Assembly: GCA_002505585.1 (NCBI GenBank) | Contig: DAVM01000021.1 | Span: forward strand, 11,660 to 75,659 | Direction of reading: 5' to 3' | From: Candidatus Woesearchaeota archaeon UBA489 | GTDB taxonomy: Archaea; Nanobdellota; Nanobdellia; SCGC-AAA011-G17; UBA489 | Length of the DNA: 64,000 nucleotides | Shown here: in pieces, positions 1,658-44,569 of the stretch | How the letters are laid out: each line of letters starts with the position of its first letter | Position numbering within the stretch: the stretch's first letter is position 1 | Notes under the pieces: model-generated | Databases searched by the model: none | What the model was told of the DNA's origin: nothing | What the model saw: only the letters and a program-made list of their open reading frames with translations | Position numbers and translations under genes: made by a program

Positions 1658-3175
1658 ATGTATATGGCAGTTATTTTCAGAGGTATTTTCTGGTTAGGCA
1701 TAATTATATCTCTACTCTCTTTATTTGTCCATATAGATGCATTCTTAGCAGTATTAATCCTAGGAACTCTTTGCATACTCTACTCACTATATGAACAACA
1801 CCGTATCAAATCCATCCAAACAATTTCAACACCACAAACAAAACCAACACTACAACCACAAAAAACAGTAGCAAAAACACTCCGTCTACCAGCAAAAACA
1901 ACACAAAAACCGCTCAAAAAAACTCATGCTTCATTTTTCACAAAAGTTCTACAATTTTTCAAAAGAAAAAAACAACCAAAACAAGAAATGATTAAACATG
2001 ACTTCATAAAACACACACCACAATTTGAAAAAATGAAAAAACTCTTCCAAGAAACAGTAACACCAAATAAACCACTTACAAAAGAAACAAAACAACCTTA
2101 TAACTTAAAACAAATAGTAGCAAAAAAATTCACAAAAACACCTAACCAAAAACAAACACAATTCTTTCCTTGGGAAAAAGAAGAACACTACATTCCAACA
2201 GGAGCAGACCACCTACAACCAATAGACCTAGAGAGAGATGAAATAGCACAACAAAAAGATGAAAGATACACAACAGTTCCAATAGGAACAATACAAAAAA
2301 CAAAAGCAACACCAACAACAGAAAGATTATTGGCAACACCAAAAATAGGACTCTTAAAAAAACTCCTCTCTTCGAAGATAACATCAACAAAACAACCCTT
2401 AATAACACCAAACTTAGGGTCAATTAAAGAAATTACTTTACCAAAAGGAGAACCAACACTACAACCAAAAGCAAAAGTAGCTCCATTACCAAAAGAAGGC
2501 ATACAACAGATAGTACACCAAAAAACAACAACAAAAGAAAAAGACTTAGAACAACTCAAAAAATACATTAGAGAATCACAAAAACAAAACTATCCAATAG
2601 AACACATCAAAGCAGCAGTAACAAAAGCAGGCTGGCCAAAAGAAATGATAACACAAGCATTTAAAGCAGAAACAATAACAACCAAAAAGAAAAAATTCAT
2701 AATCCTAGGAGTCATGTTCCTTGTTCTAATACTACTCTTAATAGTTCTAAACACAATGGACCTCTTACTCTTAGATTATCTCTTTGAAACAATACAACAC
2801 GCAAGCATGGGCTTCTACATAGGAGCTAGTGTAGTATTCTTACTCATTATAGGAATTATAATCTTTAAAACAAAAAATATTCTTCAAGAGAAAAAAACAC
2901 ATCATAAAGAAGAAGAAACAAAACATGTACAAGAAATAAAAACAGAACTAGAAGCAAGCAAAGAAGGATTTGAAACAGACTTTGACAGACTCTACAAACT
3001 CATAGAAGAAAAAAAGAAACTAACATTAAGAGAAATAGCAGCAGGCTTTGGCATAAAAAGAAGCAAAGCAGAAGAATGGGGAAAAATATTAAAAGAACAA
3101 GGACTTATAGAATTAAACTATCCAGCAGTAGGAGAACCAGAATTACAATGGAAAAAATTGATGAGTACAAAATAA
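1658..3175 (+). CDS. Lys/Thr/Gln-rich polytopic membrane protein with low-complexity K-T-P-Q repeats and a C-terminal wHTH-like segment; function unknown.
   Basis: N-terminal TM helices and a second TM cluster near aa 350-400. Long low-complexity KTKPTLQPQKT-type stretch. Lies immediately upstream of, and overlaps, the FlaI-like ATPase gene. Confidence 0.45.
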   Translation: MYMAVIFRGIFWLGIIISLLSLFVHIDAFLAVLILGTLCILYSLYEQHRIKSIQTISTPQTKPTLQPQKTVAKTLRLPAKTTQKPLKKTHASFFTKVLQFFKRKKQPKQEMIKHDFIKHTPQFEKMKKLFQETVTPNKPLTKETKQPYNLKQIVAKKFTKTPNQKQTQFFPWEKEEHYIPTGADHLQPIDLERDEIAQQKDERYTTVPIGTIQKTKATPTTERLLATPKIGLLKKLLSSKITSTKQPLITPNLGSIKEITLPKGEPTLQPKAKVAPLPKEGIQQIVHQKTTTKEKDLEQLKKYIRESQKQNYPIEHIKAAVTKAGWPKEMITQAFKAETITTKKKKFIILGVMFLVLILLLIVLNTMDLLLLDYLFETIQHASMGFYIGASVVFLLIIGIIIFKTKNILQEKKTHHKEEETKHVQEIKTELEASKEGFETDFDRLYKLIEEKKKLTLREIAAGFGIKRSKAEEWGKILKEQGLIELNYPAVGEPELQWKKLMSTK

Positions 3176-4626
3176 AAGCAGACGACTTAATCATTCCAGT
3201 AGCAATACTAGGAGGAAAAGGCATAACAAAACAGTACCACGTCTATATACCAACAATAGCACCAGGAACAAAAGCATTAATGGACTACATAAAACATGGA
3301 CTAGTATCAGAAGTAGCAATAAGCACAAAAGAAATCCTAGACCCAAAAGCAATAAACATACTCAAAGGAAAATTTACTAAAAGAGCAAAAATCTTAATAC
3401 AAGACAAACTACCAAATATTTCACAAGACACAGCAATACTCTTAATAAACATTTTAATGCAAGAAATGTTAGGACTAGGAGACATAGAATACTTATTAGC
3501 AGACGAAAATTTAGAAGAAATAGTAATAACTTCATCAAAGGAACCAATAAGAATCTACCACAAAAAACATGGATGGCTAGAAACAAACATAGCAATAGAA
3601 AACGAAGAAAAAATACTAAATTATGCAAACATCATAGGAAGAAGAGTAGGAAGACAAATCACTACACTAAGTCCACTATTAGATGCACACTTAGTAACAG
3701 GAGACAGAGCAAATGCAGTATTATTTCCCATATGTACAAAAGGACACACCATTACTATCAGAAGATTTGCGAGAGATCCTTGGACTCTAACAGACTTTAT
3801 CAAAAATAAAACAATCAACTCAAAATTATTAGCACTCATATGGCTAGCAATACAATACGAAATGAATGTATTAATAAGTGGAGGAACAGCAAGCGGAAAA
3901 ACAAGTTTCTTGAATATTTGCATGCCCTTTATCCCTAGTAATCACAGAATAGTAAGCATAGAAGATACAAGAGAATTACAACTCCCAAAATACCTCTATT
4001 GGTGCCCACTCACAGTAAGACAACCAAACCCAGAAGGAAAAGGAGAAGTAAACATGCTTGACTTACTCATTAACTCCCTACGTATGAGACCTGACAGGAT
4101 AATATTAGGAGAAATGAGAAGAAAAGACCAAGCAGCAGTACTATTCGAAGCAATGCACACAGGACACTCAGTATGTGCAACAGTACACGCAGACTCAGTA
4201 GCAGAAACCATAGAAAGACTAGTTAATCCACCCATAGAAGTACCAAAAAATCTTCTTTTAGGAGTAAATTTAAATGTAGTAATGTTTAGAGACAGAAGGA
4301 GAGGATTAAGAAGAGTGTTCCAAATAGGAGAATTCTTACCAACAATGGAAGAAGGAACAACCAATATTAAACCACACATCCTTTACAGATGGAAACCAGC
4401 AACAGACGAAATGGTAGAACACTCAACATCAGCAAGACTTTTTGAAGAATTAAGCAGACATACAGGAATGACCTTAAGCCAAATAGAAAAAGATTTGATG
4501 AAGAAAAAAGCTATACTCGATTGGATGGTTAAAAACAACATAAGACATGTTGATCAAGTAGGAGAACTCATCAAGAACTATTACTTAGATCCTGACTCAA
4601 TACTTGAGAAAGTAGGAGGGGTTTAA
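3148..4626 (+). CDS. Type II/IV secretion-system ATPase of the FlaI/TadA/VirB11 superfamily; the pilus or archaellum-type assembly ATPase.
   Basis: Walker A LISGGTASGKTSFLN, Asp box IVSIEDTRELQL, Walker B/His box RPDRIILGEMRRKD...HTGHSVCATVHA. The likely start is MEKIDEYKIK at 3148, internal to listed ORF 3076..4626. Confidence 0.85.
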   Translation: MEKIDEYKIKADDLIIPVAILGGKGITKQYHVYIPTIAPGTKALMDYIKHGLVSEVAISTKEILDPKAINILKGKFTKRAKILIQDKLPNISQDTAILLINILMQEMLGLGDIEYLLADENLEEIVITSSKEPIRIYHKKHGWLETNIAIENEEKILNYANIIGRRVGRQITTLSPLLDAHLVTGDRANAVLFPICTKGHTITIRRFARDPWTLTDFIKNKTINSKLLALIWLAIQYEMNVLISGGTASGKTSFLNICMPFIPSNHRIVSIEDTRELQLPKYLYWCPLTVRQPNPEGKGEVNMLDLLINSLRMRPDRIILGEMRRKDQAAVLFEAMHTGHSVCATVHADSVAETIERLVNPPIEVPKNLLLGVNLNVVMFRDRRRGLRRVFQIGEFLPTMEEGTTNIKPHILYRWKPATDEMVEHSTSARLFEELSRHTGMTLSQIEKDLMKKKAILDWMVKNNIRHVDQVGELIKNYYLDPDSILEKVGGV

Positions 4627-5505
4627 ATGATAAAAATACCATTTGCTTTTCTTCCACCTAAACTTCTTTATAAATATTCTAAACTTTTTTATGGAATAGC
4701 ACAAAGATTAGAAAAAAGATTCAATTTTTTAACATTACACTTAGAACAAACAGAAGCACACATCAAACCAATAGAATACATAAGTATGTGTTTAGCATCA
4801 CTCACCATATTCTTTGTTTTCATGTTATTTGTAGCTTTAATGGTAGCAACATTTGACATACCATTTCTCATAGGACTCTTAGGAGCAATACTAGTAAGTT
4901 TCTTTGTTTTTTTACAACAAATGGCCTACCCAAAACTAGTAGCCTCAAGAAGAATCAAAGGTATAGAGATAAACTTGTTACCAGCACTCCAAGACATGTA
5001 CATACAACTCAACTCAGGAGTACCACTCTTTAACATACTCATGAACATCTCAACTAGCGATTACGGAGGAGTTTCACTAGAATTTAGTAAAGCAGTGAGA
5101 GAAATAAACGCAGGAAGATCAAACCTAGAAGTGTTTGAACTTATGGCAATCAGAAACCCTAGCATACTTTTTAGAAGAGCACTCTGGCAACTTGCAAGTG
5201 GTATGAAAGAAGGATCAGACATTTCCACACTCATTCACGAAGTAATACAATCAATAGCAGACGAACAAGTCATGCAAATACAAAGATATGGTGGACAACT
5301 AAGCCCACTAGCACTCTTTTATATGCTTATAGCAGTAATTGCACCATCACTAGGCATAACCTTCATCATTATCCTATCATCATTTATAGCACTATCAGAA
5401 TTAGCAACAAAAGCAATCTTTTACGGACTCTTAATAGTAACCATATTTTTCCAACTCATGTTCTTAGGAATGATTAAAACAAGAAGACCAACATTAATGA
5501 ACTAA
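4627..5505 (+). CDS. TadC/FlaJ-like polytopic membrane protein (T2SS-F domain), first half of a split pilus platform.
   Basis: T2SSF-like segment LPALQDMYIQLNSGVPLFNILMNIS...AVREINAGRSNLEVFELMA flanked by TM helices. SD-like GGAGGG lies 8 nt upstream. Directly follows the ATPase gene. Confidence 0.75.
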   Translation: MIKIPFAFLPPKLLYKYSKLFYGIAQRLEKRFNFLTLHLEQTEAHIKPIEYISMCLASLTIFFVFMLFVALMVATFDIPFLIGLLGAILVSFFVFLQQMAYPKLVASRRIKGIEINLLPALQDMYIQLNSGVPLFNILMNISTSDYGGVSLEFSKAVREINAGRSNLEVFELMAIRNPSILFRRALWQLASGMKEGSDISTLIHEVIQSIADEQVMQIQRYGGQLSPLALFYMLIAVIAPSLGITFIIILSSFIALSELATKAIFYGLLIVTIFFQLMFLGMIKTRRPTLMN

Positions 5506-5510
5506 AAACA

Positions 5511-6485
5511 ATGTACAAATTTATCTACAAGATTTATCCAAAGAAACTTAAAGAGAACTATCAAAAACTCTTAGATTATTGTACAATAGAAACACCACTC
5601 ATTAACTTCTTAGGACTCCATTTTATAATAGGACTAGTAACAGCAATACTTTTAGCACTTTTCTTAAAAATCTTCATTAATTTTCCCACAACAATCTTAT
5701 TCATTGGCTTTTTCTTCCTCTATCAAGGAATAATTTATGCATGGCTAGTCTTAACAGCAGACTCTAGAGCAAAATTCATAGAAACACTACTACCAGACGC
5801 ACTACAATTAATGGCTTCAAACTTAAGAGCAGGACTCACCATAGACAGAGCACTCCTTCTTTCAGCAAGACCAGAATTTGGAAGATTTAAAGATGAAATT
5901 AATAGAGTAGGAAAAGAACTAGCAACAGGAAAAGAACTAGGTGAAGCTTTAATGACCTTAAGCAGCAGAGTAAAATCAGAGAAATTAAAGAAAACATTTC
6001 AAATTATAGTATCTGCAATGGCATCAGGAGGAGAACTAGCAGATTTACTAGAACAAACAGCAAGCAATTTGAGACAACAAAAATTGATAGAACAAAGAAT
6101 AAGAGCAAGCGTTCTAGTTTATGTAATATTTATTTTTTCAGCAATAGGCTTTGGATCACCAATGCTGTTTGGATTAAGCACCTTCTTAGTAGAAGTCATC
6201 ACAGATGTTTTTAGCAAAGTACAACTTCCACCCGCAAGCACAACAGGAAGCATGCCCATATCATTCTCACAAGTATCCATCTCAGTAGATTTCATTAACA
6301 CCTACACTTTAATTTCATTAGTTTTAACATCAATAATGGGATCATTAATACTAGGACTTATAGCAAAAGGAAAAGAAAAAGAAGGAATAAAATACATGCC
6401 AATACTTATACTCTTAACTATATCACTCTTTTTTATAGTAAAATGGTTAATATCATCACTCTTAGGAGGATTATTTGACTTTTAA
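5511..6485 (+). CDS. TadC/FlaJ-like polytopic membrane protein (T2SS-F domain), second half of a split platform.
   Basis: Segment LPDALQLMASNLRAGLTIDRALLL...KELATGKELGEALMTLSSR flanked by TM helices. The two T2SSF domains are on separate genes. Confidence 0.75.
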   Translation: MYKFIYKIYPKKLKENYQKLLDYCTIETPLINFLGLHFIIGLVTAILLALFLKIFINFPTTILFIGFFFLYQGIIYAWLVLTADSRAKFIETLLPDALQLMASNLRAGLTIDRALLLSARPEFGRFKDEINRVGKELATGKELGEALMTLSSRVKSEKLKKTFQIIVSAMASGGELADLLEQTASNLRQQKLIEQRIRASVLVYVIFIFSAIGFGSPMLFGLSTFLVEVITDVFSKVQLPPASTTGSMPISFSQVSISVDFINTYTLISLVLTSIMGSLILGLIAKGKEKEGIKYMPILILLTISLFFIVKWLISSLLGGLFDF

Positions 6486-7130
6486 TCACTTCCTATAATT
6501 ACGTAATAATTTTCCTTTCTTCTTATTTAAAGAACTCTTCTTTTTCATAACTTTCTTAATCTTCTCAGACTGAGCAGAAAAACCAAACTCTTTCCCTATA
6601 GTATACACCTTATAAGAAGCCAATACAAAAGTAGTATACACAAAAATCATAATAATATAACGGACATATACTAACATTCCTTTTAATCCTAAAAGATTAA
6701 TTGCAGCATCCCAAATCGAAAAAATAAGCACAAAAAGTAAACAAAAAAAGAAACTAGTAGCATACTTCCTCATAGAAGAACCAGGAGACAAAACACTTCT
6801 AGCATTAAGAGTCCAAATAATAGCCCAAACACCAAAAGTTAAAGAAACTAAAGCACTAATTAATTCAATATCTTGCACATACTTAAACAAAGCCCCTAAA
6901 CCAACTAAAATAGCAATAACACTGATTAACTGCTTAAAAAAATGCTTTAAATCATCTTTATGCATAAAGAAAAATAAACAAAGAACTGCAACAATGAGTA
7001 CACCAATAAGAACATTTACTACACTCGAAGAAAAATAAAATTTTACAATAGTCTTACCAACCAACAACAAAACAACAACTAATAACAAACTAAAACACCA
7101 CACACCCAATTTACGATTAGTTTCTTTCAT
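6486..7130 (-). CDS. Polytopic membrane protein with a Lys-rich cytoplasmic tail; unknown function.
   Basis: Five to six predicted TM helices. Coding strand follows the host A-rich bias. Convergent with the pilus genes. Confidence 0.5.
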   Translation of the reverse strand: MKETNRKLGVWCFSLLLVVVLLLVGKTIVKFYFSSSVVNVLIGVLIVAVLCLFFFMHKDDLKHFFKQLISVIAILVGLGALFKYVQDIELISALVSLTFGVWAIIWTLNARSVLSPGSSMRKYATSFFFCLLFVLIFSIWDAAINLLGLKGMLVYVRYIIMIFVYTTFVLASYKVYTIGKEFGFSAQSEKIKKVMKKKSSLNKKKGKLLRNYRK

Positions 7131-7132
7131 TT

Positions 7133-7693
7133 TTATAACTCCAATAAGATATCACAAAACTGACTTAATTCATCCAATAACTCTTTATTTGAATCCTTCT
7201 CAAGAGAAACAATAATTCCCTTCACATTCCAAACACGCATCTTTCCAGATAAAAAATGAATAAACTTAGCAACAGTAGTAGGTTTATTATACACCAACAA
7301 AGTATCTAAACTATCAAAAAAAAGAAACTTTTTATCACCAGGAACAGCACGAACAGCCTGATCCATAGCAAGAGAAATATCGCTCAAATTATCAGGACTA
7401 CCAATAAACAAACACTTCTCAGTTTTTTTAACATCACCACCAGAAGTCTTAGTAACAGCATCAATAAAAATAATCATATCAGTATTAATACCTTTCTTCA
7501 CAAGAAAAGGTTGCATCACAGAAAAAGGCTTGTTTAAAGTAACATACACACCAGGAACCTCATCATCAACAGTCAGATACTTAATCATTTCAAGATTACT
7601 ATCTTGATATTTACTAGCAGTAACTTTAGCTAAAGCAACATAATTCTCGTTACCATTAAGAGACTCTTTTATTTTATTCCTAACCTCTTCCAT
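7133..7693 (-). CDS. Degenerate KaiC/RecA-like domain protein lacking a Walker A motif (DUF835-like).
   Basis: RecA-fold-like strand/helix pattern (MIIFIDAVTK, FLFFDSLDTLLVYN) but no GxxGxGKT. Divergent from the KaiC-like pair and shares an intergenic region containing two opposed TATA boxes. Confidence 0.5.
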   Translation of the reverse strand: MEEVRNKIKESLNGNENYVALAKVTASKYQDSNLEMIKYLTVDDEVPGVYVTLNKPFSVMQPFLVKKGINTDMIIFIDAVTKTSGGDVKKTEKCLFIGSPDNLSDISLAMDQAVRAVPGDKKFLFFDSLDTLLVYNKPTTVAKFIHFLSGKMRVWNVKGIIVSLEKDSNKELLDELSQFCDILLEL

Positions 7694-7750
7694 ACAAAAG
7701 AAAACAACTCCTTCAAACGATATAAACCTTTCGTTCCAATTGTAGAAAGA

Positions 7751-7758
7751 TATTTATA
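7751..7758 (+). promoter_or_regulatory. Archaeal TATA box for the KaiC-like operon; an opposed TATA at 7711-7721 on the minus strand serves the DUF835-like gene.
   Basis: tatttata is centred ~30 nt upstream of the ATG at 7785. cgatataaacc on the minus strand lies ~23 nt upstream of the start at 7693. Confidence 0.4.
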
Positions 7759-7784
7759 CCCCAACATCTAACTAAAAACAAGTT

Positions 7785-8486
7785 ATGGAAAAGATAAAAA
7801 CAGGTGTCCAAGGTCTAGACGAAGTATTAGAAGGAGGTATTCTTTCAACTAGCTCAGTACTCTTAGCAGGAGTACCAGGAACAGGAAAAACCCTCTTTGG
7901 CATGCAATACATCTTACAAGGAGCCTTAGAAGGACAACCAGGACTCTTTATAAGTTATGAAGAACTAGAATCTACTATAGTAAAACATGCACATAATTTT
8001 GGACTAGACTTCACAACACACATAAAAAAAGGACTCATAACAGTAGTAAACCAAGAAATAAGCGGAAAACTCATAAGCTTTAGAGCACTTCTAGACTTAA
8101 TGCAAAAAAGAAACATCAAAAGAGTTTTCTTAGACTCCATAACACTCTTTGAATATATCATCTTTGACAAAAAAGCAGACTTTAGGAAAGAAGTACTAGA
8201 ATTCACAAGAGCACTAAAAAAATTAGGCATAACACTTCTCGCAACATCAGAAAAAAAAGAAACAGACATAGATAATATAGCTTATAACCCCGAAGACTTT
8301 TTATTTGAAGGACTAATACACTTAACAAAAATAAGAAAAGGAGCATCATTCGAAAGATGTCTTTCAGTAGCAAAAATGAGAGGACAATCACATATGATGG
8401 GAATTTATCCCTTCACAATAAATGAAGAAGGAATAATTATTTACCCAAAACAAATACCTTTCTCACTAATAGAAAAAGATTCATGA
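7785..8486 (+). CDS. KaiC/RadB-like RecA-superfamily ATPase.
   Basis: Walker A LLAGVPGTGKTLFGMQYI, then GLFISYEE, and Walker B-like VFLDSI. TATA box at 7751-7758. Confidence 0.75.
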   Translation: MEKIKTGVQGLDEVLEGGILSTSSVLLAGVPGTGKTLFGMQYILQGALEGQPGLFISYEELESTIVKHAHNFGLDFTTHIKKGLITVVNQEISGKLISFRALLDLMQKRNIKRVFLDSITLFEYIIFDKKADFRKEVLEFTRALKKLGITLLATSEKKETDIDNIAYNPEDFLFEGLIHLTKIRKGASFERCLSVAKMRGQSHMMGIYPFTINEEGIIIYPKQIPFSLIEKDS

Positions 8487-9190
8487 CAACAATGGTAGAC
8501 AACACAAGAATAGCATCAGGAATACCAGGACTAGACCCACTAATAGAAGGAGGGTTTAAAACAGGAAGCATAAATTTAGTAGTAGGAACAGCAGGATCAG
8601 GAAAAACAACATTCGCAATGCAATTCTTAATAGATGGACTAGCAAAAGGAGAACCAAGCATCTTTGTAACATTTGAAGAAAAGAAAAAAAAGCTCTACGA
8701 AGACATGAAATCATTCGGATGGGACTTAATTAAATTTGAAGAACAAGGACTCTTTAAATTCTTAGAATACACACCAGAACAAATCAAAAGAGTACTAGTA
8801 GAAGGAGGAGGAACCATAGACTCTTTAATAACAGAAATGAACGTAAAAAGACTAGTAATAGACAGTATAAGCTCATTCGCACTCCTCTTCCAAGATCAAT
8901 TAACCCAAAAAGAATCATCACTAGCACTCTTCGACCTCATCAACAGCTGGGGATGTACAGCAGTACTAACATCACAAGCAGTACAAATAGGGCCAGATGA
9001 TTTAACCTCACAACTCCAATTTGAAGTAGACGCAATAATTTTATTGTATCACTTTAAGAAAAAAGGAATAAGACAAAGAGCATTAGAAGTACTCAAAATG
9101 AGAGGAACACAAACAACAGAAAAAACAGTTAGATTAATCATCAACACTAAAGGTATAAGTGTCAATGCAACAGAGATAGTTAGTCTGTAG
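8483..9190 (+). CDS. KaiC/RadB-like RecA-superfamily ATPase, tandem paralog of the previous gene.
   Basis: Walker A LVVGTAGSGKTTFAMQFL, then SIFVTFEE and LVIDSI. 4-nt ATGA overlap with the upstream gene. Confidence 0.75.
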   Translation: MTTMVDNTRIASGIPGLDPLIEGGFKTGSINLVVGTAGSGKTTFAMQFLIDGLAKGEPSIFVTFEEKKKKLYEDMKSFGWDLIKFEEQGLFKFLEYTPEQIKRVLVEGGGTIDSLITEMNVKRLVIDSISSFALLFQDQLTQKESSLALFDLINSWGCTAVLTSQAVQIGPDDLTSQLQFEVDAIILLYHFKKKGIRQRALEVLKMRGTQTTEKTVRLIINTKGISVNATEIVSL

Positions 9191-10160
9191 TCTGTTTCTT
9201 AATAGCAAGGAAAATATACAAAAGTGTAACAAGAACTAAAATTATTAATACACCTAAAAATAATTTAGGAGCTAAAGAAGATTTTTGCTCACCACACTTT
9301 TTCCAAGAACAAACTAAAGACAAACACTCAAAATCTTCCGCACAAGAAACCTCATCACTCTTCTGAGCTAACCACTCACCTGAAGAAGCAACACAAAACT
9401 TTCCACTATCAATAGTTCCATCAACAACACACTGCTCTTTTAAACTACAACCAACCTCTTTAGAAACACTACAACGTTTAGGTGATCCAGAACAAGTATG
9501 AGTAGTACAAGCATCATTATCTTCACAATCCTTGTTAGTTTGACACTTATCAACAGTTTTACAATCAGCATCTTCTGCAGTATCACAAGCTTCAGGACAA
9601 CAAGCATCACCAGCCTTACACACTGCAATTGCAGTATGCACACACTTACTAGGATAATTAGCATCATCACAAGTATCAATAGTGCAAGAATTATCATCAT
9701 TACAATCTGCAGCAGCATTACATTCATTATTTGCCTGAGAACTAGTAATATTTTCAATACAACGATTTCTTGAACAAGCAAACTTTGAACTCAAACACCC
9801 ACAATCAGTACAACAAACAACTTGATCTTCACCAGCACCACAAACCTTATCACCACAAATAATATTTACAGTAATATCCAAAATTGCTTTAGGAGGAGAA
9901 CGAGAAAAACCAACAACATAAATAAACACACCATTAACCATCTTAGATCTATTATCTTTAATATTTTCAGTTACTCCATCAACATCAACATTTATGCTAT
10001 CCCTTACAATACCAAGAACAGAAATATTTTTTCCACTCAAGACTTTATTACCAGGAATATCTAAAATAACCTTCTCTTGAGCAGCAGAAACAGTTAGAAC
10101 TAAAAAACTTAGACAGCATAAAGCATAAACTATTTGGAGAACTCTTTTACTCATAACCAT
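9180..10160 (-). CDS. Cysteine-rich secreted protein with a signal peptide and a C-terminal TM anchor.
   Basis: N-terminal signal peptide (LQIVYALCCLSFLVLTVSAA) and a C-terminal hydrophobic anchor plus KKQTTD tail. About 50 Cys in 326 aa in CxxDxxC-type repeats. Confidence 0.6.
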   Translation of the reverse strand: MVMSKRVLQIVYALCCLSFLVLTVSAAQEKVILDIPGNKVLSGKNISVLGIVRDSINVDVDGVTENIKDNRSKMVNGVFIYVVGFSRSPPKAILDITVNIICGDKVCGAGEDQVVCCTDCGCLSSKFACSRNRCIENITSSQANNECNAAADCNDDNSCTIDTCDDANYPSKCVHTAIAVCKAGDACCPEACDTAEDADCKTVDKCQTNKDCEDNDACTTHTCSGSPKRCSVSKEVGCSLKEQCVVDGTIDSGKFCVASSGEWLAQKSDEVSCAEDFECLSLVCSWKKCGEQKSSLAPKLFLGVLIILVLVTLLYIFLAIKKQTTD

Positions 10161-11086
10161 TTTTTGTTATTAAAAACTAGGAGCATCACAACAATACAAG
10201 CAATTATAATGCCAAAAACAATCCAAAAAGCTTGTTGATGTTCTTGAAAAGGCAAAACAACATTCATACCATATAAACCTGTAATAAGCATAGGCAACAA
10301 CAATACAGAAGCGATGACTGTAAAGTATTTCATAACAACATTAATCTTATTAGAAATATTACCAGTATTAATCTCCAAAATACTAGTTAAACGTTCACGA
10401 TAAATCTCTAAAGTATCACTAACTTGCATCATTTCAACATTTAATTCAGCAAACAAAGCCTTTTCCTTAATAGCAGGAACATCCTTTATTAAATCATTAA
10501 TAACAGAACGATTTCCAGAAACAGATTTTTTTAAATATAATAATTTGTTTTTCAAAGCAAAAATTCTTTTAACTATATGCTCATGAGCAGCAGATAAAAC
10601 ATCATCTTCAATACTTTCTAGACTATCTTCAATAACTTCTAATAACTTATGTTTTGATTTAATAAGATTATACAAAATACGTAATAAAATAATTTCTGTA
10701 CCATTATGAAACATATGTTTAGTCATATCAGCGTTTAAGTCAAGTTCATCAATAAAAGGCAACTTACTAAGATGAATAGCAATTAAATGTCTTCTAGTGA
10801 AGAAAAAACCAATAGGACCACAACGCTTTAAGTCTTCTTCACAATGAGACTGGCTATAAATTATTAAAGTGTATTCTTTAGTTTGTTTAATCCTAGGACT
10901 TTCGTAATTATCAAGACAAGCATTAATATCAGCAATAGAAATCTTAAATCTCTCATGCAATTGATTAACTTCACTCAAAGAAGGATTAGTAACATCCACT
11001 AAACTAATATTCCGCTTTAAATTTACTTGCTTTAAGTTAGACTCAACAACACGAGCGTGAGCACCAGCAGTTATCACCCTTATCAT
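10151..11086 (-). CDS. corA: CorA-family Mg2+/Co2+ transporter.
   Basis: C-terminal two-TM region with the YGMN signature (LITGLYGMNVVLPF). Typical ~310 aa length. Confidence 0.85.
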   Translation of the reverse strand: MIRVITAGAHARVVESNLKQVNLKRNISLVDVTNPSLSEVNQLHERFKISIADINACLDNYESPRIKQTKEYTLIIYSQSHCEEDLKRCGPIGFFFTRRHLIAIHLSKLPFIDELDLNADMTKHMFHNGTEIILLRILYNLIKSKHKLLEVIEDSLESIEDDVLSAAHEHIVKRIFALKNKLLYLKKSVSGNRSVINDLIKDVPAIKEKALFAELNVEMMQVSDTLEIYRERLTSILEINTGNISNKINVVMKYFTVIASVLLLPMLITGLYGMNVVLPFQEHQQAFWIVFGIIIACIVVMLLVFNNKKWL

Positions 11087-11109
11087 ATACTAAGTAGTCA
11101 TGTATTCTG

Positions 11110-11148
11110 CTATATAAATCTACTGTTGATAGGAAACTATATAAAAAC
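11110..11148. promoter_or_regulatory. Divergent promoter region with two TATA boxes between corA (minus) and the thioredoxin-like gene (plus).
   Basis: ctatataaat at 11110-11119 is ~28 nt upstream of the corA start. actatataaaaa at 11137-11148 is ~25 nt upstream of the ATG at 11167. Confidence 0.4.
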
Positions 11149-11166
11149 CTATTTCTTCAAAAAAAC

Positions 11167-11655
11167 ATGGTGCACATAAAAAAGAGCAGACATAGCATAA
11201 AACAAGCAAAAAGAGAAGCTAGACAAAAACAGCAAGTAGAAGAACAAACACAGAGACATGCTGTGACAAAAAAGAGGAAAATAAAACATTACAGCATATT
11301 TTCAGTCATAGGAATCATAGTACTTATTGCATTATTCTTCCTTTTCTCTTCAATTGAAGACAAACCAGGACCACATGATGCATTTGCCCAATGTTTAACA
11401 GAAGAAGGAGCAACCATGTACGGAGCATTCTGGTGTCCACACTGTGCAGAACAAAAAAAGATGTTTGGTAAATCATTTAAGTATGTGGACTATGTAGAAT
11501 GTGACCCTAAAGGAAAGAATGCAAATCCTGAAAAATGTAATCAAGCAGGAATAACTTCCCATCCAACATGGATAATAAAAGGAGAAAAGTACAATGGACA
11601 ACAACCACTTCCAATATTAGCAGAAGCGACAAGTTGTGAGTTAACAAAAACTTAG
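11167..11655 (+). CDS. Membrane-anchored thioredoxin-fold thiol:disulfide oxidoreductase (DsbA-like, CPHC active site).
   Basis: N-terminal TM helix followed by WCPHC and a thioredoxin-fold pattern (second Cys pair CDP...C). Upstream of VKOR. Confidence 0.7.
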   Translation: MVHIKKSRHSIKQAKREARQKQQVEEQTQRHAVTKKRKIKHYSIFSVIGIIVLIALFFLFSSIEDKPGPHDAFAQCLTEEGATMYGAFWCPHCAEQKKMFGKSFKYVDYVECDPKGKNANPEKCNQAGITSHPTWIIKGEKYNGQQPLPILAEATSCELTKT

Positions 11656-11772
11656 AAAAAGCTTTAAATACTATCATTTATTCTTATTCTTATGCCAGGA
11701 AAAGGAAAAAAAGGGAAACCAACAAAAAAGAAAAAACCTAATATTTGTGACATGTGTTAGGAAGTACTTCTA

Positions 11773-12303
11773 ATGAATGAACACAAGAGGCTATATAAGA
11801 TACAAGTAATTTCTATAATAGCAATACTTATCTCAATATTTTTATCATTTCATTATTATCAACCTCAAACTAGTAATTTTTGTCCTTTTGGAGAATCATT
11901 TAATTGTAATGTAATCAATAAAAGTCCTTATGCAACCATAGATGGTATTTTTTATTTTTTAACAACTGACATGAATCTAGATGTTCCTTTAGTGAAGATA
12001 CCATTACCAAATGCCACAGTAACTCTTGTAATCTTCTTAATCATTTTTGGAGCAGCATATAGTATAGGAAAAAATAAACCATTCTGGGGAATGAAAAGAG
12101 AAAAATTATTACAATTACTAAGAGTGTTGTTATACATAAGCTTAGCATATGCGATTTATTTAGCGTACGTAGAAGCATTTATTCTATTAAATTACTGCAT
12201 TTTCTGTATTTTATTAGACGTTTGTATAATTGCAGCATTATGGTTAGTGATAGGCATAAAGAAGAAAGCGAAGAAAAAAGTAAAGAGAAGAAAAAGACGA
12301 TAA
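11773..12303 (+). CDS. Vitamin K epoxide reductase (VKOR) family membrane protein; a DsbB-analogous disulfide generator.
   Basis: Four to five TM helices. Loop Cys pair FCPFGESFNC with 7-residue spacing as in VKORC1. TM CxxC motif NYCIFC (compare human TCIVC). Confidence 0.7.
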   Translation: MNEHKRLYKIQVISIIAILISIFLSFHYYQPQTSNFCPFGESFNCNVINKSPYATIDGIFYFLTTDMNLDVPLVKIPLPNATVTLVIFLIIFGAAYSIGKNKPFWGMKREKLLQLLRVLLYISLAYAIYLAYVEAFILLNYCIFCILLDVCIIAALWLVIGIKKKAKKKVKRRKRR

Positions 12304-12354: not shown

Positions 12355-12948
12355 ATGTTCAAAGAACTAAACATACTCCAACACTTCTTTAAAGAGCCAA
12401 TAAGGCAGTTTAACGTAAGAGAACTAGCAAGAATACTCAAACAAGCGCCGGCAACAGTAAGTAAAGAATTAAAAGCATTAGCAAAGAAAGGAATATTACA
12501 ACAAGAAAAAGAAAGAAGATTTCATCTATATAAGGCAAACATAGACAGTGAATACTACAAAGACCTGAAAGTCTATTATACTATTAGACAAATAAAAGAA
12601 ACAGGGTTACTAGAAGCATTAAATAAATTTTATTGGCATCCAGATATAACTTTATTTGGATCAGCAGCAAGAGGTATGGACACAGAAACAAGTGACATAG
12701 ATCTACTTCTAATTACAGACAAAACCGAATATTGTCACGAATTAAAACAATTTGAGAAAAAATTACACAGAGAAATACAAATCTTTCCGGTTAAACATGT
12801 AAAAAGTATAGGAAATAAACACTTAGTTTCAAATATGATGGATGGCATACCAATCCAAGGACAAATAGAATGGATCTGGACACCTGCTTCAAAAAAGGTC
12901 TCATTAAAAAGACGCTTATCAACAAAAAACTCATCCAAGCATTTATAG
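12355..12948 (+). CDS. Winged-HTH plus minimal nucleotidyltransferase (MNT) domain protein; the antitoxin-like partner of HEPN.
   Basis: N-terminal wHTH (ELARILKQAPATVSKELK). NTase motif GSAARGMDTETSDIDLLLI (GS...DxD). TATA box at 12323-12333. Confidence 0.7.
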   Translation: MFKELNILQHFFKEPIRQFNVRELARILKQAPATVSKELKALAKKGILQQEKERRFHLYKANIDSEYYKDLKVYYTIRQIKETGLLEALNKFYWHPDITLFGSAARGMDTETSDIDLLLITDKTEYCHELKQFEKKLHREIQIFPVKHVKSIGNKHLVSNMMDGIPIQGQIEWIWTPASKKVSLKRRLSTKNSSKHL

Positions 12949-13286
12949 AAATGTCAAACATTAAAGAACAAACAGTAGTAGAAGCATCGATTACAGAATA
13001 CAACATTTCAGCCTATGTTTCACTAGCATATGATGCACTAAGAGAAATACTAGAAGCACTTTGTATGCTCCATGGCTATAAAGTACTATCACATGTTTGT
13101 GTAGGAGAACTATTAAACGAATATTTAGAAGACTTTGACTACCATGGATTCAATAAACTTCGTTGGGTTAGAAATAGCATAAATTATTATGGAGAGAAAG
13201 TACCTTATGACCAAGGAAAACAAGCTATTCAACAAATCTTCACCCTCAAGAAAAGCATAGCAGAAACCTACTTTGACCAAACATAA
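12870..13286 (+). CDS. HEPN-domain protein, partner of the MNT; the true start may be the internal Met at 12951.
   Basis: All-alpha ~115-aa protein immediately after, and overlapping, the MNT gene. Conserved R-x(4-6)-H-like region (RNSINYYGEKV). Assignment is by genomic context. Confidence 0.5.
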   Translation: MDLDTCFKKGLIKKTLINKKLIQAFIEMSNIKEQTVVEASITEYNISAYVSLAYDALREILEALCMLHGYKVLSHVCVGELLNEYLEDFDYHGFNKLRWVRNSINYYGEKVPYDQGKQAIQQIFTLKKSIAETYFDQT

Positions 13287-13725
13287 CTTATATAAACACT
13301 TTTTGTTTAGTAGCTTTATAGACTATGAAGAACAGAAGAGAAGATTAGATGCCCTGCCAAGAGAATTGGTAGTAAATTACCTCAGAAAAGCACGTTTAGC
13401 ATGTGAACATGCAGGATTAGTAGCAGAGAACCCCATTTCATCCTCAGCTCTTAAATTTCTCATTGAGAGAAACAAAAGAGGATTAGCAGAAGCAGAAACA
13501 ACATTAGTGCAAGCTATACGCTGCGAAGAAATTGTTGTTACAGGTCCTGAATTAACTCATTATTTGCTCACTTATGCTAGAGCACTTCACAGAGAACAAC
13601 GAGCAGTAAATGCAGAATACCAAAAAAAAGGAGCACCAGAAGGCTTACGCCAGGTTGGTGAAGAAGAGGAAGAAAGTCTTCAGCTTTTGATTGAACAAGG
13701 CTTAGAACAAAGCTTCCAATCATAA
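13273..13725 (+). CDS. Hypothetical acidic alpha-helical protein with atypical codon usage.
   Basis: Uses CTC/CGC/CGT/GCC codons that are rare elsewhere in the window. E/Q/L-rich. No recognisable motif. Confidence 0.4.
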   Translation: MTKHNLYKHFLFSSFIDYEEQKRRLDALPRELVVNYLRKARLACEHAGLVAENPISSSALKFLIERNKRGLAEAETTLVQAIRCEEIVVTGPELTHYLLTYARALHREQRAVNAEYQKKGAPEGLRQVGEEEEESLQLLIEQGLEQSFQS

Positions 13726-16341: not shown

Positions 16342-17286
16342 ATGAGATATTCAAGACAAGAGCTCTATTTAGGCAAAGAAAGCCAAGAAGTATTAAAGAA
16401 GAAGCATGTAGTACTAGTGGGAGTAGGAGCACTAGGAAGTGTAGCAGCAGAATTACTAACAAGAGCAGGTATAGGAAAATTAACACTTATAGATAGAGAT
16501 GTAGTAGAATTACATAATTTACAAAGACAAAGCTTGTATGAAGAAAAAGATGAAGGAGAAGCAAAAGTACTAGCAGCAAAGAAACATTTAGAAAGAATAA
16601 ATAAAGAAGTACAAATAACAGCAAAAGTAGAAGATATAACACACGAAAATGTAGAATTGTTGAAAAGTGATTTAATCTTAGATGGAACAGACAACCTAGT
16701 AACAAGATTCTTGATCAATGAATACAGTAAGAAAAATAAAATACCCTGGATTTATGCAGCAGCAGTAAGTGACAAAGGCTATGTAAAAATCTACTTACCA
16801 GAAACAGACTGCTTTCAGTGCACTTTTACAGAAACAACAGGACTAGATAGTTGTGATACGGCAGGAGTATTAAACACTTTAACACATACAGTAGCAAGCA
16901 TACAAGTAACAGAAGCATTCAAAGTGTTGTTACAAAAAGTTCAAGAAACACCACTTTTCCATTTAAACATATGGGAAAATAGTTTAACAAGACTAAAAAC
17001 ACAAAGAAAAGAAGGATGTGAAGTATGTAAAGGAAACTATAACTATTTAATGGGGAAGAAAGAAAAAGAAATAATCAAATTCTGTGGATCAGGAAGCTAT
17101 CAAATAAAAGGAAAAGTGAAGTTAGAAGAAATAAAAGAGAAGTTGGAAAAACTAGGAAAAGTAGAATCATTTGAGCATGGCATACAATTTAATCAACTTA
17201 TGATATTCAAAGATGGAAGAGTATTAATAAAAGCAAAAGACGAAAAAGAAGCGAAATCTTTATATGCACAATATATAGGAGAATGA
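16342..17286 (+). CDS. E1-like ThiF/MoeB/UbaA-family adenylyltransferase; a candidate SAMP-activating enzyme.
   Basis: Rossmann GxGxxG (LVGVGALGSVAAELL) with a conserved ...DRD.VE.HNLQRQ block. CxxC pairs CFQC and CEVC, plus a C-terminal extra domain. Confidence 0.8.
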   Translation: MRYSRQELYLGKESQEVLKKKHVVLVGVGALGSVAAELLTRAGIGKLTLIDRDVVELHNLQRQSLYEEKDEGEAKVLAAKKHLERINKEVQITAKVEDITHENVELLKSDLILDGTDNLVTRFLINEYSKKNKIPWIYAAAVSDKGYVKIYLPETDCFQCTFTETTGLDSCDTAGVLNTLTHTVASIQVTEAFKVLLQKVQETPLFHLNIWENSLTRLKTQRKEGCEVCKGNYNYLMGKKEKEIIKFCGSGSYQIKGKVKLEEIKEKLEKLGKVESFEHGIQFNQLMIFKDGRVLIKAKDEKEAKSLYAQYIGE

Positions 17287-17290
17287 GTAG

Positions 17291-17533
17291 ATGGTGAAGT
17301 ACAAAATAATCTTTGATAGAGAAGGGTGTATCGGAGCATTAGCATGCGCAGGAGTAGCAGAAGAATACTGGATACCAGCAGAAGACGGAAAAGTAGACTT
17401 GAAAGGAGCAACCTTTAATGAAGAAACCAAAAAATGGGAATTAATAGTAGGTGAAGAAGCAATAGATGTAAACAAAGTAGCAGTAGATGTCTGCCCAGTA
17501 CAAGTAATAATAATAGAAAAAATAGAAGATTAA
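17291..17533 (+). CDS. Small ferredoxin-like protein (single-cluster ferredoxin type).
   Basis: CIGALAC ... CP arrangement resembling Pyrococcus-type single-cluster ferredoxin. 80 aa. Confidence 0.5.
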   Translation: MVKYKIIFDREGCIGALACAGVAEEYWIPAEDGKVDLKGATFNEETKKWELIVGEEAIDVNKVAVDVCPVQVIIIEKIED

Positions 17534-17770
17534 TTACTCATTCCTTCTACAACCACAACCGCCTTCTCTACCGCAACCGCCCTTCTTTTCAGAAGCAGTG
17601 TTATCCTCAGCATACACATAAGTCTTCTCTTCAACTTCAGCAGCACAAGCACGATGAGAGCCATCACAAAAAGGTTTAGCTTTAGATAAACCACAAGCAC
17701 AAATCCATTTACCAACATCCTCCTCAGTAATCTTAACAGGATGCCTTTCTTTGATTTTAATTAAGCGAGC
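17534..17770 (-). CDS. CDGSH iron-sulfur domain protein (mitoNEET-like).
   Basis: Exact CDGSH signature WICACGLSKAKPFCDGSH. Gly/Cys-rich C-tail. Start chosen at MARLIKIK. Confidence 0.75.
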   Translation of the reverse strand, partial: ARLIKIKERHPVKITEEDVGKWICACGLSKAKPFCDGSHRACAAEVEEKTYVYAEDNTASEKKGGCGREGGCGCRRNE

Positions 17771-17811
17771 CATACACAACACATAAAAAAGAGAACTTCT
17801 TAAGCTTTTCT

Positions 17812-29487: not shown

Positions 29488-29679
29488 TTAACGCTCTAAA
29501 GGAACAATAATCCAAGCAATAATATAAGCCAAAAGACCAGCACCACTAAATAATAGAAGAATACAAATTAAACGAATTAACACAGGATCAACACTAAAAT
29601 AAGCAGCAATACCACCACAAACACCACCTAAAATCTTATCAGAACGAGAGCGAAACAAACGCTTAACATTACTCCTCAT
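29488..29679 (-). CDS. PspC-domain small membrane protein.
   Basis: LGGVCGGIAAYFSVDPVLIRL matches the PspC consensus, followed by a TM helix. Start ATG overlaps the upstream gene's stop (ATGA). Confidence 0.7.
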   Translation of the reverse strand: MRSNVKRLFRSRSDKILGGVCGGIAAYFSVDPVLIRLICILLLFSGAGLLAYIIAWIIVPLER

Positions 29680-29944
29680 ACTTCATCCTCCAACAACTTA
29701 TCCAATTCACCTTTCTCATCCAACTCAGCCAAATCATCATACCCACCAACAAACTTCTTATTAATAAAAACATAGGAGCAGTAGACCAATTATCAGTCTT
29801 TTCAGACACCTTTGCCAACTCATCAGGAGACAAATTATAATAATCTACAGTTTTGTACTTAACACCCTTCTTAACAAACAAATCCTCAGCAGCAGCACAA
29901 AAAGGACAACCAACTTTAATATACATTAGAATATCAAGTTTCAT
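29676..29944 (-). pseudogene. Glutaredoxin-like (CPFC) gene with a -1 frameshift in an A5/T5 homopolymer; possibly a sequencing artefact or a slippage site.
   Basis: N-terminal part YIKVGCPFCAAAEDLFVKKGVKYKTVDY is in one frame. The canonical C-terminus INKKFVGGYDDLAELDEKGELDKLLEDEV is in the -1 frame. The junction is the A-run at plus 29766-29770 (T TTT TTA on the coding strand). Confidence 0.6.
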
Positions 29945-43084: not shown

Positions 43085-44389
43085 ATGAAATATAAAACGT
43101 CAGGAACACTCTTATTATTCTTAATAGCATTACTAACTTTTACTGGCATTGCACAAGCAGCACCAGAATATGAAATTAAAAAAGTACTTGTAGACAATTT
43201 AGACATCACAGGTAGCTCATTCGATGTAAAAAGAGACAGTGATGTACTCATAGAAGTATGGATAGAAGGAACTGGAAACGAAACAATACCTGACGTAAGA
43301 GCAGAAGCAAAAGTATTAGGTTATGAATTTGGAGTAATTTCAGACTTAACAAACATCTTTGCAATAGAAGGTGGAAGATTATATAAAAAAACATTAAGAT
43401 TACACATACCAAAAGACATCGATGCATCTGAAGAATACACACTAAGAATCGAAGTATCAGATAAAAAAGAAGAAATTAAAAAAGAACTTAACTTCCACAT
43501 CGATGAACAAAGACACAGCTTGAACATTTTTGACATAGTACTAAACCCAAGTTCAAGAATACAAGCAGGACAAGCATTGTTCCCATCAGTAGTAGTTGAA
43601 AACTTAGGGGCAATGAAAGAAGAAAACATCAAAGTAACTGTAAGCGTTCCAGAACTAGGAATAACAGCAGTAAACTACTTAGATGAACTTATTACTCAAA
43701 GACAAGAAGAAAGAAGAACATTCAACTTAAGAGAAGAAAGCTCAGAAAGAATAGACTTCTTGCTAAGAGTACCTGAAGATACAAAAACTGGAGAATACAC
43801 ACTCAAAATAGAAGTACTCTACAACAGAGGACATAGTGTATTAAGCTCAACAAGAACCTTTGCAGTACAAGGTGTAGAAACAAAAGAAGTAGATACAGTC
43901 ATTAACATAGACAGCACTTCAAAAAGTACAGAAGCAGGAAAAGAAGTAATCTACAAAGTAATGTTTGCTAACTTAGGAACAGAAAGAGGCATATACTCAG
44001 TACAAGTGGACGGCGTAAGCTGGGCACAACACAGAGTAGAACCTGGATTTGTAACAGTAGCACCTGATGCAACAGCAGAAGCATTAATCTACATAACACC
44101 AAACAGTAATGTAGAAGCTAAAAACTATGTATCAGTAGTACGAGTAATGTTAGGAAGAGAAATCATAAACGAATTCACTCTAAACACAAACGTACAAAGT
44201 GCAACTGAAGAACAAGCAACAACAAGTGCATTAAAAACAACACTAGCAGTAGTATTTAGTGTGTTAGTAATAGCACTAATCATTTTGGGATTAGTTATAG
44301 CGTTCAGAAAAATCGGAAAATCTGATGAAGATGAACCAGTAACAAACATTCCAGAAGGACAAACATACTATTACCATCCTAGAAGGTAA
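43085..44389 (+). CDS. Cell-surface protein with a signal peptide, beta-rich ectodomain and a C-terminal TM anchor.
   Basis: Signal peptide LLLFLIALLTFTGIAQA. C-terminal LAVVFSVLVIALIILGLVIAF followed by an acidic tail. Confidence 0.6.
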   Translation: MKYKTSGTLLLFLIALLTFTGIAQAAPEYEIKKVLVDNLDITGSSFDVKRDSDVLIEVWIEGTGNETIPDVRAEAKVLGYEFGVISDLTNIFAIEGGRLYKKTLRLHIPKDIDASEEYTLRIEVSDKKEEIKKELNFHIDEQRHSLNIFDIVLNPSSRIQAGQALFPSVVVENLGAMKEENIKVTVSVPELGITAVNYLDELITQRQEERRTFNLREESSERIDFLLRVPEDTKTGEYTLKIEVLYNRGHSVLSSTRTFAVQGVETKEVDTVINIDSTSKSTEAGKEVIYKVMFANLGTERGIYSVQVDGVSWAQHRVEPGFVTVAPDATAEALIYITPNSNVEAKNYVSVVRVMLGREIINEFTLNTNVQSATEEQATTSALKTTLAVVFSVLVIALIILGLVIAFRKIGKSDEDEPVTNIPEGQTYYYHPRR

Positions 44390-44569
44390 TAGAACCCACT
44401 TTTCTTCTTATTTTCTTATTTTTTAATCCGCAATCTTTTCAGAGAATTCTGAGATAGCTTTATAAATAAGCAAGCCTTATAGCTTTTATAAGTTATTTGG
44501 GGGAATACTTACCTAGAATGAGTGCACAAACAAAACACATTAAATATTGAGAAAATAAGAAGTAAAACA

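Follow-up and report, generated by a model that had tools for sequence, protein, structure and literature searches.

A probable split VKOR-thioredoxin pair for disulfide formation outside the cell in a marine DPANN archaeon

The window analyzed here, i.e., a 64-kb stretch (64,000 nucleotides) of contig DAVM01000021.1 from Candidatus Woesearchaeota archaeon UBA489, encodes a VKOR homologue, a membrane-anchored thioredoxin-like (Trx-like) protein and, close by, a cysteine-rich (Cys-rich) surface protein. The locus raises the question of whether the first two proteins make disulfide bonds outside the cell and, if so, whether the third is one of their substrates. The original prediction, made from the sequence alone, had proposed a DsbB-analogous oxidative pathway with a likely major substrate. 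Its four open reading frames (ORFs) were found on the strands and at the coordinates that it gave: the Cys-rich ORF at 9180-10160 on the reverse strand, a gene for a CorA-type Mg2+/Co2+ channel at 10151-11086, also on the reverse strand, and beyond it the Trx-like gene (11167-11655) and the VKOR gene (11773-12303), both on the forward strand. Our analyses make it very likely that the products of 11167-11655 and 11773-12303 are the two components of a system that generates disulfides on the outside of a marine DPANN archaeon of the Woesearchaeota/Nanoarchaeota type. The pair would represent a split form of the VKOR-Trx fusion found in cyanobacteria and plants, with the Cys-rich protein as a plausible client. 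Family membership, the conservation of catalytic residues, the topology predicted for both proteins and a gene linkage that recurs in relatives upheld the proposed pathway; the Cys-rich protein is a candidate substrate, which one window does not suffice to call "major".

The VKOR homologue, the Trx-like protein and the Cys-rich protein are all encoded, with identical sequence, by marine contigs from Tara Oceans, among them those of station 039 (mesopelagic, 0.1-0.22 µm fraction) and of the metagenome-assembled genome (MAG) GCA_002506165.1. The closest named homologues belong to MAGs of Woesearchaeota, Nanoarchaeota and Aenigmatarchaeota, so that an ultra-small DPANN archaeon is the most likely source. 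Related loci are designated below by L numbers; scans with a VKOR profile found eight such loci in genome contigs and four in metagenome contigs.

The VKOR homologue and its thioredoxin-like partner

The 176-residue product of 11773-12303 matched the VKOR family (Pfam PF07884) with 57.0 bits against a cut-off of 27.5 (E=3e-15), over profile positions 4-134 of 134. It contains cysteines at positions 37, 45, 142, 145 and 151. The first two form the shuttle pair C37-x7-C45 of the first loop (nucleotides 11881-11907), which is followed by the conserved S51, while C142-I-F-C145 (nucleotides 12196-12207) constitutes the active site at the outer end of transmembrane (TM) helix 4. C37, C45, S51, C142 and C145 were invariant in five VKOR orthologues. 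When a profile of these orthologues was compared with solved structures, it matched human VKORC1 (E=1.8e-5) and Synechococcus VKOR (E=7e-4), and the five residues aligned with human C43, C51, S57, C132 and C135 and with their Synechococcus equivalents. The loop spacing is that of human VKORC1, two residues longer than the cyanobacterial C-x5-C. The predicted family, the VKORC1-like loop pair and the CIFC motif in TM4 were all borne out. Hydropathy analysis revealed four TM segments, as in the four-helix bundle of the family, and an AlphaFold2 (AF2) model built on a shallow alignment placed helices at matching positions (pTM 0.61, with a low-confidence loop).

The Trx-like protein (162 residues) was recognized as a membrane-anchored thiol-disulfide oxidoreductase by a phmmer search against the PDB. 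By hydropathy and charge, it comprises a polybasic cytoplasmic tail of 42 residues, a TM helix at approximately residues 43-61 and, outside the cell, a Trx-like domain. The WCPHC motif occupies residues 89-93, with C90 and C93 encoded by nucleotides 11434-11445, and the cis-Pro loop is probably S-H-P133-T-W. The other cysteines, at 76, 112, 124 and 157, make up two further pairs, C112/C124 and C76/C157. Residues 47-157 matched TM5 plus the Trx-like domain of Synechococcus VKOR (4NV2/3KP9, E=1.4e-26; 3KP8, E=2.9e-26), with the WCPHC, YVEC…C and S-[HY]-P-T-W motifs of both proteins all in register. This homology confirmed the anchored thioredoxin-fold protein that had been predicted upstream of VKOR, whereas the Pfam thioredoxin models proposed as a check did not recognize it, the best being Thioredoxin_4 with 17.4 bits against a cut-off of 23.2. 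Glutaredoxin-like NCBIfam matches of the protein were far below cut-off, and NCBIfam placed the Trx-like, VKOR, Cys-rich and micro-ORF products (for the last, see below) all beneath its curated thresholds. No match to DsbA (PF01323) was obtained at E≤0.1, and the external domain, at only about 100 residues, is too short for the helical insertion of DsbA. CPHC is the dipeptide motif of E. coli DsbA, an oxidizing enzyme; the Trx-like protein would act like DsbA, yet it is not a member of the DsbA family.

The Trx-like protein is encoded by a separate gene upstream of VKOR and is not joined to it covalently through a fifth TM helix. Its own TM helix nevertheless aligns with TM5, the linker helix of the Synechococcus fusion, and the shared homology over TM5 and the Trx-like domain indicates that the gene pair is a split form of this known fusion. 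The split point would fall in the cytoplasmic loop that links TM4 of VKOR to the fifth helix, by which the fusion places its Trx-like domain outside; both of the termini that it creates are strongly basic (Trx tail, 14 K/R; VKOR tail, 12). Database searches yielded 118 homologues of the Trx-like protein, of 91-225 residues, in DPANN archaea and in the candidate phyla radiation (CPR/Patescibacteria). A precomputed VKOR domain was present on none of the 118; some carried a precomputed PF00085, and most of those listed had no precomputed Pfam domain. In an alignment of 35 stand-alone homologues, W89, C90, C93, C112 and C124 were invariant, and C76, P91 and C157 were at least 90% conserved. The presence of three cysteine pairs in a domain of 100 residues fits an extracytoplasmic location. 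Moreover, freshwater relatives have, in place of the TM anchor, a lipoprotein-type signal with a terminal Cys, which indicates that the domain is exported.

The distribution of charges in VKOR points the same way. Lysine plus arginine number two at the N-terminus, five in the TM2-TM3 loop and 12 in the C-terminal tail, as against two in the C37/C45 loop (which also has four D/E) and none in the short TM3-TM4 turn before CIFC. This positive-inside pattern recurred in four VKOR orthologues (five VKORs in total) and in three Trx-like proteins, and on this basis all catalytic cysteines of both proteins are predicted to lie outside the cell, as originally proposed, with the VKOR N-terminus and polybasic C-tail predicted to be cytoplasmic. 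Neither of the two outcomes that had been named as refuting the original prediction, an unmatched VKOR HMM and cytoplasmic Cys pairs, was observed. Inward-facing archaeal VKORs do exist, according to PMC13486548 (citing Hatahet & Ruddock 2013 and Hibender 2017), and the CxxC peptide of the adjacent micro-ORF is predicted to be cytoplasmic. However, a VKOR that faces inward and makes cytoplasmic disulfides, like ApVKORi of Aeropyrum pernix, is very improbable here, given the charge distribution, the position of the cognate Trx domain behind a signal-anchor or lipoprotein signal, and a host that is a low-GC marine mesophile (window GC approximately 33%) and not a hyperthermophile.

For an outward-facing pair, we infer the electron path, including its direction and the quinone acceptor, from the homologous Synechococcus enzyme. 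The C90-C93 disulfide of the anchored Trx-like protein would oxidize the thiols of proteins that have just been exported. The reduced Trx-like protein would then be re-oxidized by the VKOR loop pair C37/C45, which would hand the electrons to C142-I-F-C145 at the outer end of TM4 and, by analogy, from there to a membrane quinone. Two observations weigh against the last step, i.e., no quinone-biosynthesis gene is visible in the window, and most DPANN lineages have been reported to be without electron-transport chains (PMC8407392). For Clostridia, which do not synthesize quinones, a supply from neighboring organisms has been suggested (PMC12453122); a neighbor-derived quinone would, by analogy, fit an episymbiont too.

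Partners of the Trx-like family in related lineages

In the clade of the window (the window, L010 and L021), the gene order is Trx, micro-ORF, VKOR. In freshwater Woesearchaeota (L008, L013, L014, L022 and L023), VKOR precedes Trx with overlapping stop and start codons, a DsbD_TM/CcdA-like gene follows and a divergent gene for an HxlR regulator lies ahead (L013, 221-3595; L014/L023, 3531-6878; L008, 6001-7646; L022, 421-2048). The third gene of L013 matched DsbD_TM (PF02683) with 31.9 bits against a cut-off of 27.1. In these operons an oxidase and a reductive transporter flank a single Trx. An Aenigmatarchaeota locus (L031, 4001-7103) has, within 3 kb, genes for a VKOR-Trx fusion, a CcdA-like protein and a stand-alone Trx with CPHC, the last within 2 kb of the fusion. 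The fusion protein (341 residues) has a C-x7-C loop pair, a CPLC motif and a CPNC motif in its Trx domain. The cytoplasmic tail of the stand-alone Trx of L031 resembles a C2H2 zinc finger (CDICNRKFKTNEALKQHKNVIH).

A different partner was found in CPR bacteria. In Nomurabacteria (L033/L034, 3421-4959), a stand-alone member of the Trx family has a cupredoxin-like gene on one side and, directly downstream, a DsbB homologue (PF02600) in place of a VKOR. Since VKOR and DsbB are two analogous quinone-linked oxidases, pairing of the family with either one argues for a DsbA-like role, and this partner swapping is the best comparative argument in its support. Adjacency of VKOR to thiol-disulfide oxidoreductases has been reported in 88 of 750 CPR genomes, where the pairs were proposed to act in the folding of pilins (PMC6744442), and VKOR homologues and their Trx fusions are known from many archaea and bacteria (PMC4555120). 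According to PMC13486548, which cites Hibender 2017, E. coli is complemented by archaeal VKOR.

Several features of the related loci weigh against an oxidizing VKOR/Trx pair. The adjacency of the two genes is not universal, given that VKOR has no neighboring Trx in L007 and L024, nor Trx a neighboring VKOR in L026/L027 and L028. Furthermore, several relatives have the DsbD_TM/CcdA-like reductive transporter in a shared operon, where the Trx-like protein could also be held reduced. It may therefore be asked whether the Trx-like protein is mainly a reductase or isomerase, on a pathway of the CcdA/DsbD to ResA/CcmG/DsbC type, with VKOR not its physiological oxidant. The freshwater operons and L031, in which the CcdA-like gene separates the VKOR fusion from the stand-alone Trx, would both suit such a role. 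Nevertheless, we regard it as quite unlikely in the window, since CPHC is the motif of oxidizing DsbA and of the Synechococcus Trx-like domain, and since the Trx-like gene is paired solely with VKOR in the window clade and with DsbB in a CPR bacterium. In addition, tblastn searches of the 64-kb window found no CcdA/DsbD-like sequence (E>2), no DsbB and no paralogues of the VKOR, Trx-like or Cys-rich proteins.

Archaeal type IV pilin-like genes, with class III signal-like N-termini and 3-6 cysteines, were observed within a few kb of VKOR in L008 (1617-2153) and L024 (145-1904). Their products are possible further clients of the disulfide pathway.

The cysteine-rich protein, the micro-ORF and the rest of the locus

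The original prediction described the Cys-rich neighbor as a secreted, C-terminally anchored protein of 326 residues with about 50 cysteines. The length of the ORF, the signal-like N-terminus and the C-terminal TM segment were as described, and the cysteine count is 32. This amounts to 9.8% of its residues, a ninefold excess over the mean of 1.08% for approximately 19,400 residues of window ORFs, and 30 of the 32 belong to the ectodomain, past the signal-like segment and ahead of the C-terminal anchor. Most other signal-bearing proteins of the window have 0-2 cysteines. A run of signal-peptide proteins at 43085-57577, again with 0-2 cysteines, contrasts with the lone hyper-Cys protein near VKOR; within these coordinates lies a 2355-residue protein (45284-52351) with Laminin_G_3 and Big_7 domains and 17 cysteines. 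The Cys-rich gene likely starts at position 10154, with an ATG that overlaps the stop codon of corA as ATGA, and public gene calls list a protein of 324 residues. This overlap indicates co-transcription of the two genes, and it recurs in L009.

In ten full-length homologues of the Cys-rich protein (29-53% identity by BLASTP), 29 ectodomain cysteines were invariant and the thirtieth was present in nine of the ten. Such conservation argues for structural disulfides, probably 15 of them. The AF2 model (mean pLDDT 76, pTM 0.33) was β-rich and consisted of a signal helix, a Cys-free β-domain at approximately residues 25-96, a string of small β-hairpin modules and a C-terminal TM helix. The modules span approximately 190 residues with 30 cysteines and show Dicty_CTDC-like C-x-D-x-N-x-C-T-x-D-x-C motifs. 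An exhaustive profile search retrieved 1318 cluster representatives at E<1e-3, with dozens of the top scorers being full-length proteins of about 300-350 residues, and revealed that the Cys modules are reused in many larger proteins. Six of 33 larger relatives matched Pfam Dicty_CTDC (PF00526) at E≤1e-3 (best E=2.4e-6), and others are marked as surface or adhesion proteins by NHL, Kelch, CARDB, MG or S-layer domains. The window protein itself had no Pfam match, including to PF00526 (E≤0.1), and no NCBIfam match. Nor did it show the three-domain, β-rich ectodomain (DI/DII/DIII) of class II membrane-fusion proteins or fusexins, or significant structural similarity to them.

We infer from these features that the Cys-rich protein is a very plausible client of the VKOR/Trx system. 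Its position next to the Trx gene is, however, weak evidence for such a role, because the loci in which the two lie side by side (the window, L010/L021 and L028) are all close relatives, at 46-53% identity to the window, while the distant ones keep KaiC-like neighbors. Also speaking against the link are L009 and L011/L012, which have the Cys-rich gene without VKOR or Trx nearby. An alternative, to which we give somewhat less than even weight, is that the adjacency is inherited gene order and that the Cys-rich gene belongs with a KaiC-like/DUF7504/type IV pilus-like block, its product being, e.g., the extracellular part of a KaiC-type signaling or adhesion module and either one of many clients of the pathway or independently oxidized. 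The block in question occupies 3076-9190 of the window and comprises a T2SSE ATPase, two T2SSF proteins, a 214-residue membrane protein, a DUF7504 protein and two KaiC-like ATPases. It is the most conserved neighbor of the Cys-rich family (L009, L010 and L011/L012): KaiC-like ATPases and T2SSE/T2SSF pilus-type genes, and not VKOR, are its most constant companions, with KaiC-like/DUF7504 genes kept in all loci examined. KaiC-like genes directly adjoin the Cys-rich gene in the window, L009, L010 and L011/L012; in the last, which holds the most distant homologue, the Cys-rich gene is part of an overlapping-gene operon with DUF7504/KaiC-like genes. The reuse of the Cys modules in hundreds of other surface proteins also suits this alternative.

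Inherited gene order would, on the other hand, be compatible with a substrate role, and 30 conserved extracellular cysteines require an oxidant. In addition, the promoters of corA/Cys-rich and Trx lie back to back within 80 bp, and freshwater Woesearchaeota (L013/L014) have an unrelated repeat lipoprotein with 17 cysteines in approximately 170 residues, 1-2 kb from the VKOR operon. Of the pilus-type genes, the one for T2SSE carries intein domains in L009 (6594-10724; Intein_splicing and LAGLIDADG) and in L010 (12612-14627; Intein_splicing), and the window copy (516 residues) does not.

A short, previously unannotated ORF of 22 codons, which the original prediction did not mention, lies between Trx and VKOR (11692-11760, forward strand). 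The peptide that it specifies (MPGKGKKGKPTKKKKPNICDMC) is polybasic, has no hydrophobic segment and ends in a CxxC motif. Five distinct variants of 21-24 codons were found, in the window, L007 (2127-2201), L009 (1653-1718, reverse strand), L010/L021 (6330-6401, reverse strand, and 1051-1122, respectively) and L025 (216-290). All begin with MPGK, continue with a Lys-rich stretch and end in N-[IV]-C-[DE]-[MV]-C-stop. They differ by synonymous third-position changes (CCA/CCT, GGA/GGT, AAT/AAC, GTT/GTC/GTG and TAG/TAA) and by insertions or deletions of whole codons, and each is preceded by a TATA box at the distance typical of the genome. In the window this box (TTTAAATA, 11663-11670, forward strand) lies 29 nt upstream of the ATG. 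A degenerate DNA pattern for the micro-ORF occurred once in the window and not at all in 100 shuffles.

That the micro-ORF is not a gene, i.e., a chance ORF or a spacer or leader whose peptide is irrelevant, might be suspected from its mere 22 lysine-rich codons in an A-rich genome, from the lack of a database family match and from the lack of copies in viral contigs, where the DNA pattern had no matches. This seems improbable given five diverged copies that keep both ends of the peptide through synonymous substitutions and whole-codon changes, the TATA box of each copy, and the L009 copy, which is monocistronic. In L009 the micro-ORF has its own TATA box and an oligo-T tract and stands ahead of a separately promoted P-type ATPase gene at a locus without VKOR and Trx, so that its presence does not strictly depend on VKOR. 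As a gene, the micro-ORF would presumably be transcribed with VKOR. The VKOR gene has no TATA box and starts 11-15 nt after the micro-ORF stop, so that a leaderless transcript carrying the micro-ORF and then VKOR is likely; the two are probably co-transcribed, with the micro-ORF as the first cistron. In the window, L007 and L010, the micro-ORF is in frame with VKOR (start-to-start distances of 81, 87 and 87 nt). Read-through of its TAG to give VKOR an N-terminal extension was considered and rejected, as the L025 copy is out of frame (86 nt), TAG is the ordinary stop codon of Trx, and the L009 copy stands alone with TAA.

The peptide is predicted to be cytoplasmic and may resemble polybasic membrane-targeting tails of the CaaX type. 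As a speculation, the acceptor of VKOR might come from the membrane of a host or neighbor, the archaeon being probably without quinone synthesis, so that the folding of a 15-disulfide surface protein and attachment itself would depend on the partner; the micro-ORF would at the same time represent a new class of polybasic C-x-[MV]-C peptides that act at the cytoplasmic face of the membrane with VKOR and the P-type ATPase. This combined proposal seems to us a long shot.

The promoters of the locus are of archaeal type. The 80 bp between corA and Trx (11087-11166) form a divergent promoter region with back-to-back TATA boxes, one for corA and the Cys-rich gene (TTTATATA, 11111-11118, reverse strand, at -32 from the ATG) and the other for Trx (TATATAAA, 11138-11145, forward strand, at -29). 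A strict TATA motif was found ahead of 14 of 56 window genes, as against approximately 2% expected by chance, and was missing from operon-internal genes. Its distance to the ATG was nearly always 29-32 nt, with one gene at 26 and one at 34 nt. This spacing indicates that transcripts of the window are mostly leaderless, and the pattern of gene starts supports an archaeal origin. We relied on this analysis because a scan for bacterial σ70 promoters and terminators (10 sites against 16 expected) is uninformative for an archaeon. An Rfam scan identified only two tRNAs in the window, neither of them in the locus.

Amongst the neighboring genes, corA (PF01544, E=3.7e-52) is the first gene of the corA-Cys-rich operon, and the channel has no evident role in disulfide chemistry. 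Downstream of VKOR, a gene for an HTH and nucleotidyltransferase (NTP_transf_2) protein, together with two small ORFs that match no Pfam family (12355-13725), intervenes before a P-type ATPase gene, which in L007 directly follows VKOR; this segment looks like an inserted cassette of the MNT toxin-antitoxin type. Cytoplasmic redox genes, i.e., for ThiF-like, Fer4_15 ferredoxin and zf-CDGSH proteins and a glutaredoxin-like protein with CPFC, occur at 16342-17782 and 29669-29944, and in L001-L004 and L007 the ThiF/Fer4_15/CDGSH trio retains its synteny with the genes for VKOR and the P-type ATPase.

Significance and comparison with known systems

The core interpretation, a split and outward-facing VKOR/Trx-like pair, is correct, and the system is of a known kind. 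What is new is the lineage, a split in which the gene order is reversed relative to the fusion, the evidence of partner swapping for the Trx family, and the micro-ORF. DPANN archaea, with their minimal genomes and often episymbiotic habit, keep a complete extracytoplasmic disulfide pathway close to heavily disulfide-bonded surface proteins, which fits surface proteins being central to their lifestyle. There is also a consequence for annotation. The compact stand-alone Trx-like family misses the Pfam thioredoxin cut-offs in the window, and, since its partner is VKOR in DPANN archaea but DsbB in a CPR bacterium, it merits a DsbA-like functional label. Two questions are sharpened, namely which electron acceptor serves VKOR where quinone synthesis is thought to be lacking, a puzzle already raised for Clostridia (PMC12453122), and what role the polybasic CxxC peptide plays ahead of VKOR.

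The nearest known systems are the Synechococcus VKOR-Trx fusion (3KP9, 4NV2, 4NV5 and 4NV6) and plant LTO1. The window pair shares with them the four-helix core, the loop Cys pair, the conserved Ser and the CXXC of TM4, as well as a homologous Trx-like domain with WCPHC, the x-P-T-W loop and the structural YVEC…C pair, and the helix that precedes this domain aligns with TM5. Unlike in the Synechococcus fusion, however, each half has a gene of its own, Trx first and VKOR second, and the micro-ORF separates the two; the loop pair is C-x7-C and not C-x5-C; and the stand-alone Trx-like protein has the additional conserved pair C76/C157 and a basic cytoplasmic tail of 42 residues. The VKOR core is slightly closer to human VKORC1 than to Synechococcus VKOR (E=1.8e-5 vs 7e-4).

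The arrangement of a separate, membrane-anchored oxidoreductase that is re-oxidized by a neighboring VKOR, with surface or pilus proteins as clients, resembles that of actinobacterial VKOR and DsbA/MdbA (Mycobacterium tuberculosis Rv2968c/Rv2969c; Actinomyces oris) and of the VKOR-adjacent family of CPR bacteria. In contrast to these, the system of the window has an archaeal host, and its partner protein is a compact Trx-like domain of cyanobacterial type and not a DsbA/MdbA protein with the helical insertion. Amongst archaea, ApVKORo and ApVKORi of A. pernix are VKOR homologues that support disulfide formation in E. coli, according to work cited in PMC13486548. A. pernix has an inward-facing paralogue, whereas the VKOR of the window is predicted to face outward and belongs to a mesophilic DPANN archaeon. 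On the client side, spacing of the C-x-D-x-N-x-C-T-x-D-x-C type is common to the Cys-rich protein and the Dictyostelium CTDC repeat (PF00526); unlike this repeat, the Cys-rich protein, itself without a Pfam match, adds a Cys-free N-terminal β-domain and a TM anchor. Finally, E. coli DsbB has no detected sequence homology to VKOR, and no DsbB is encoded in the window, but the DsbA-DsbB pair follows the same logic, in which electrons pass from a CPHC oxidase to a membrane protein with two Cys pairs and on to quinone.

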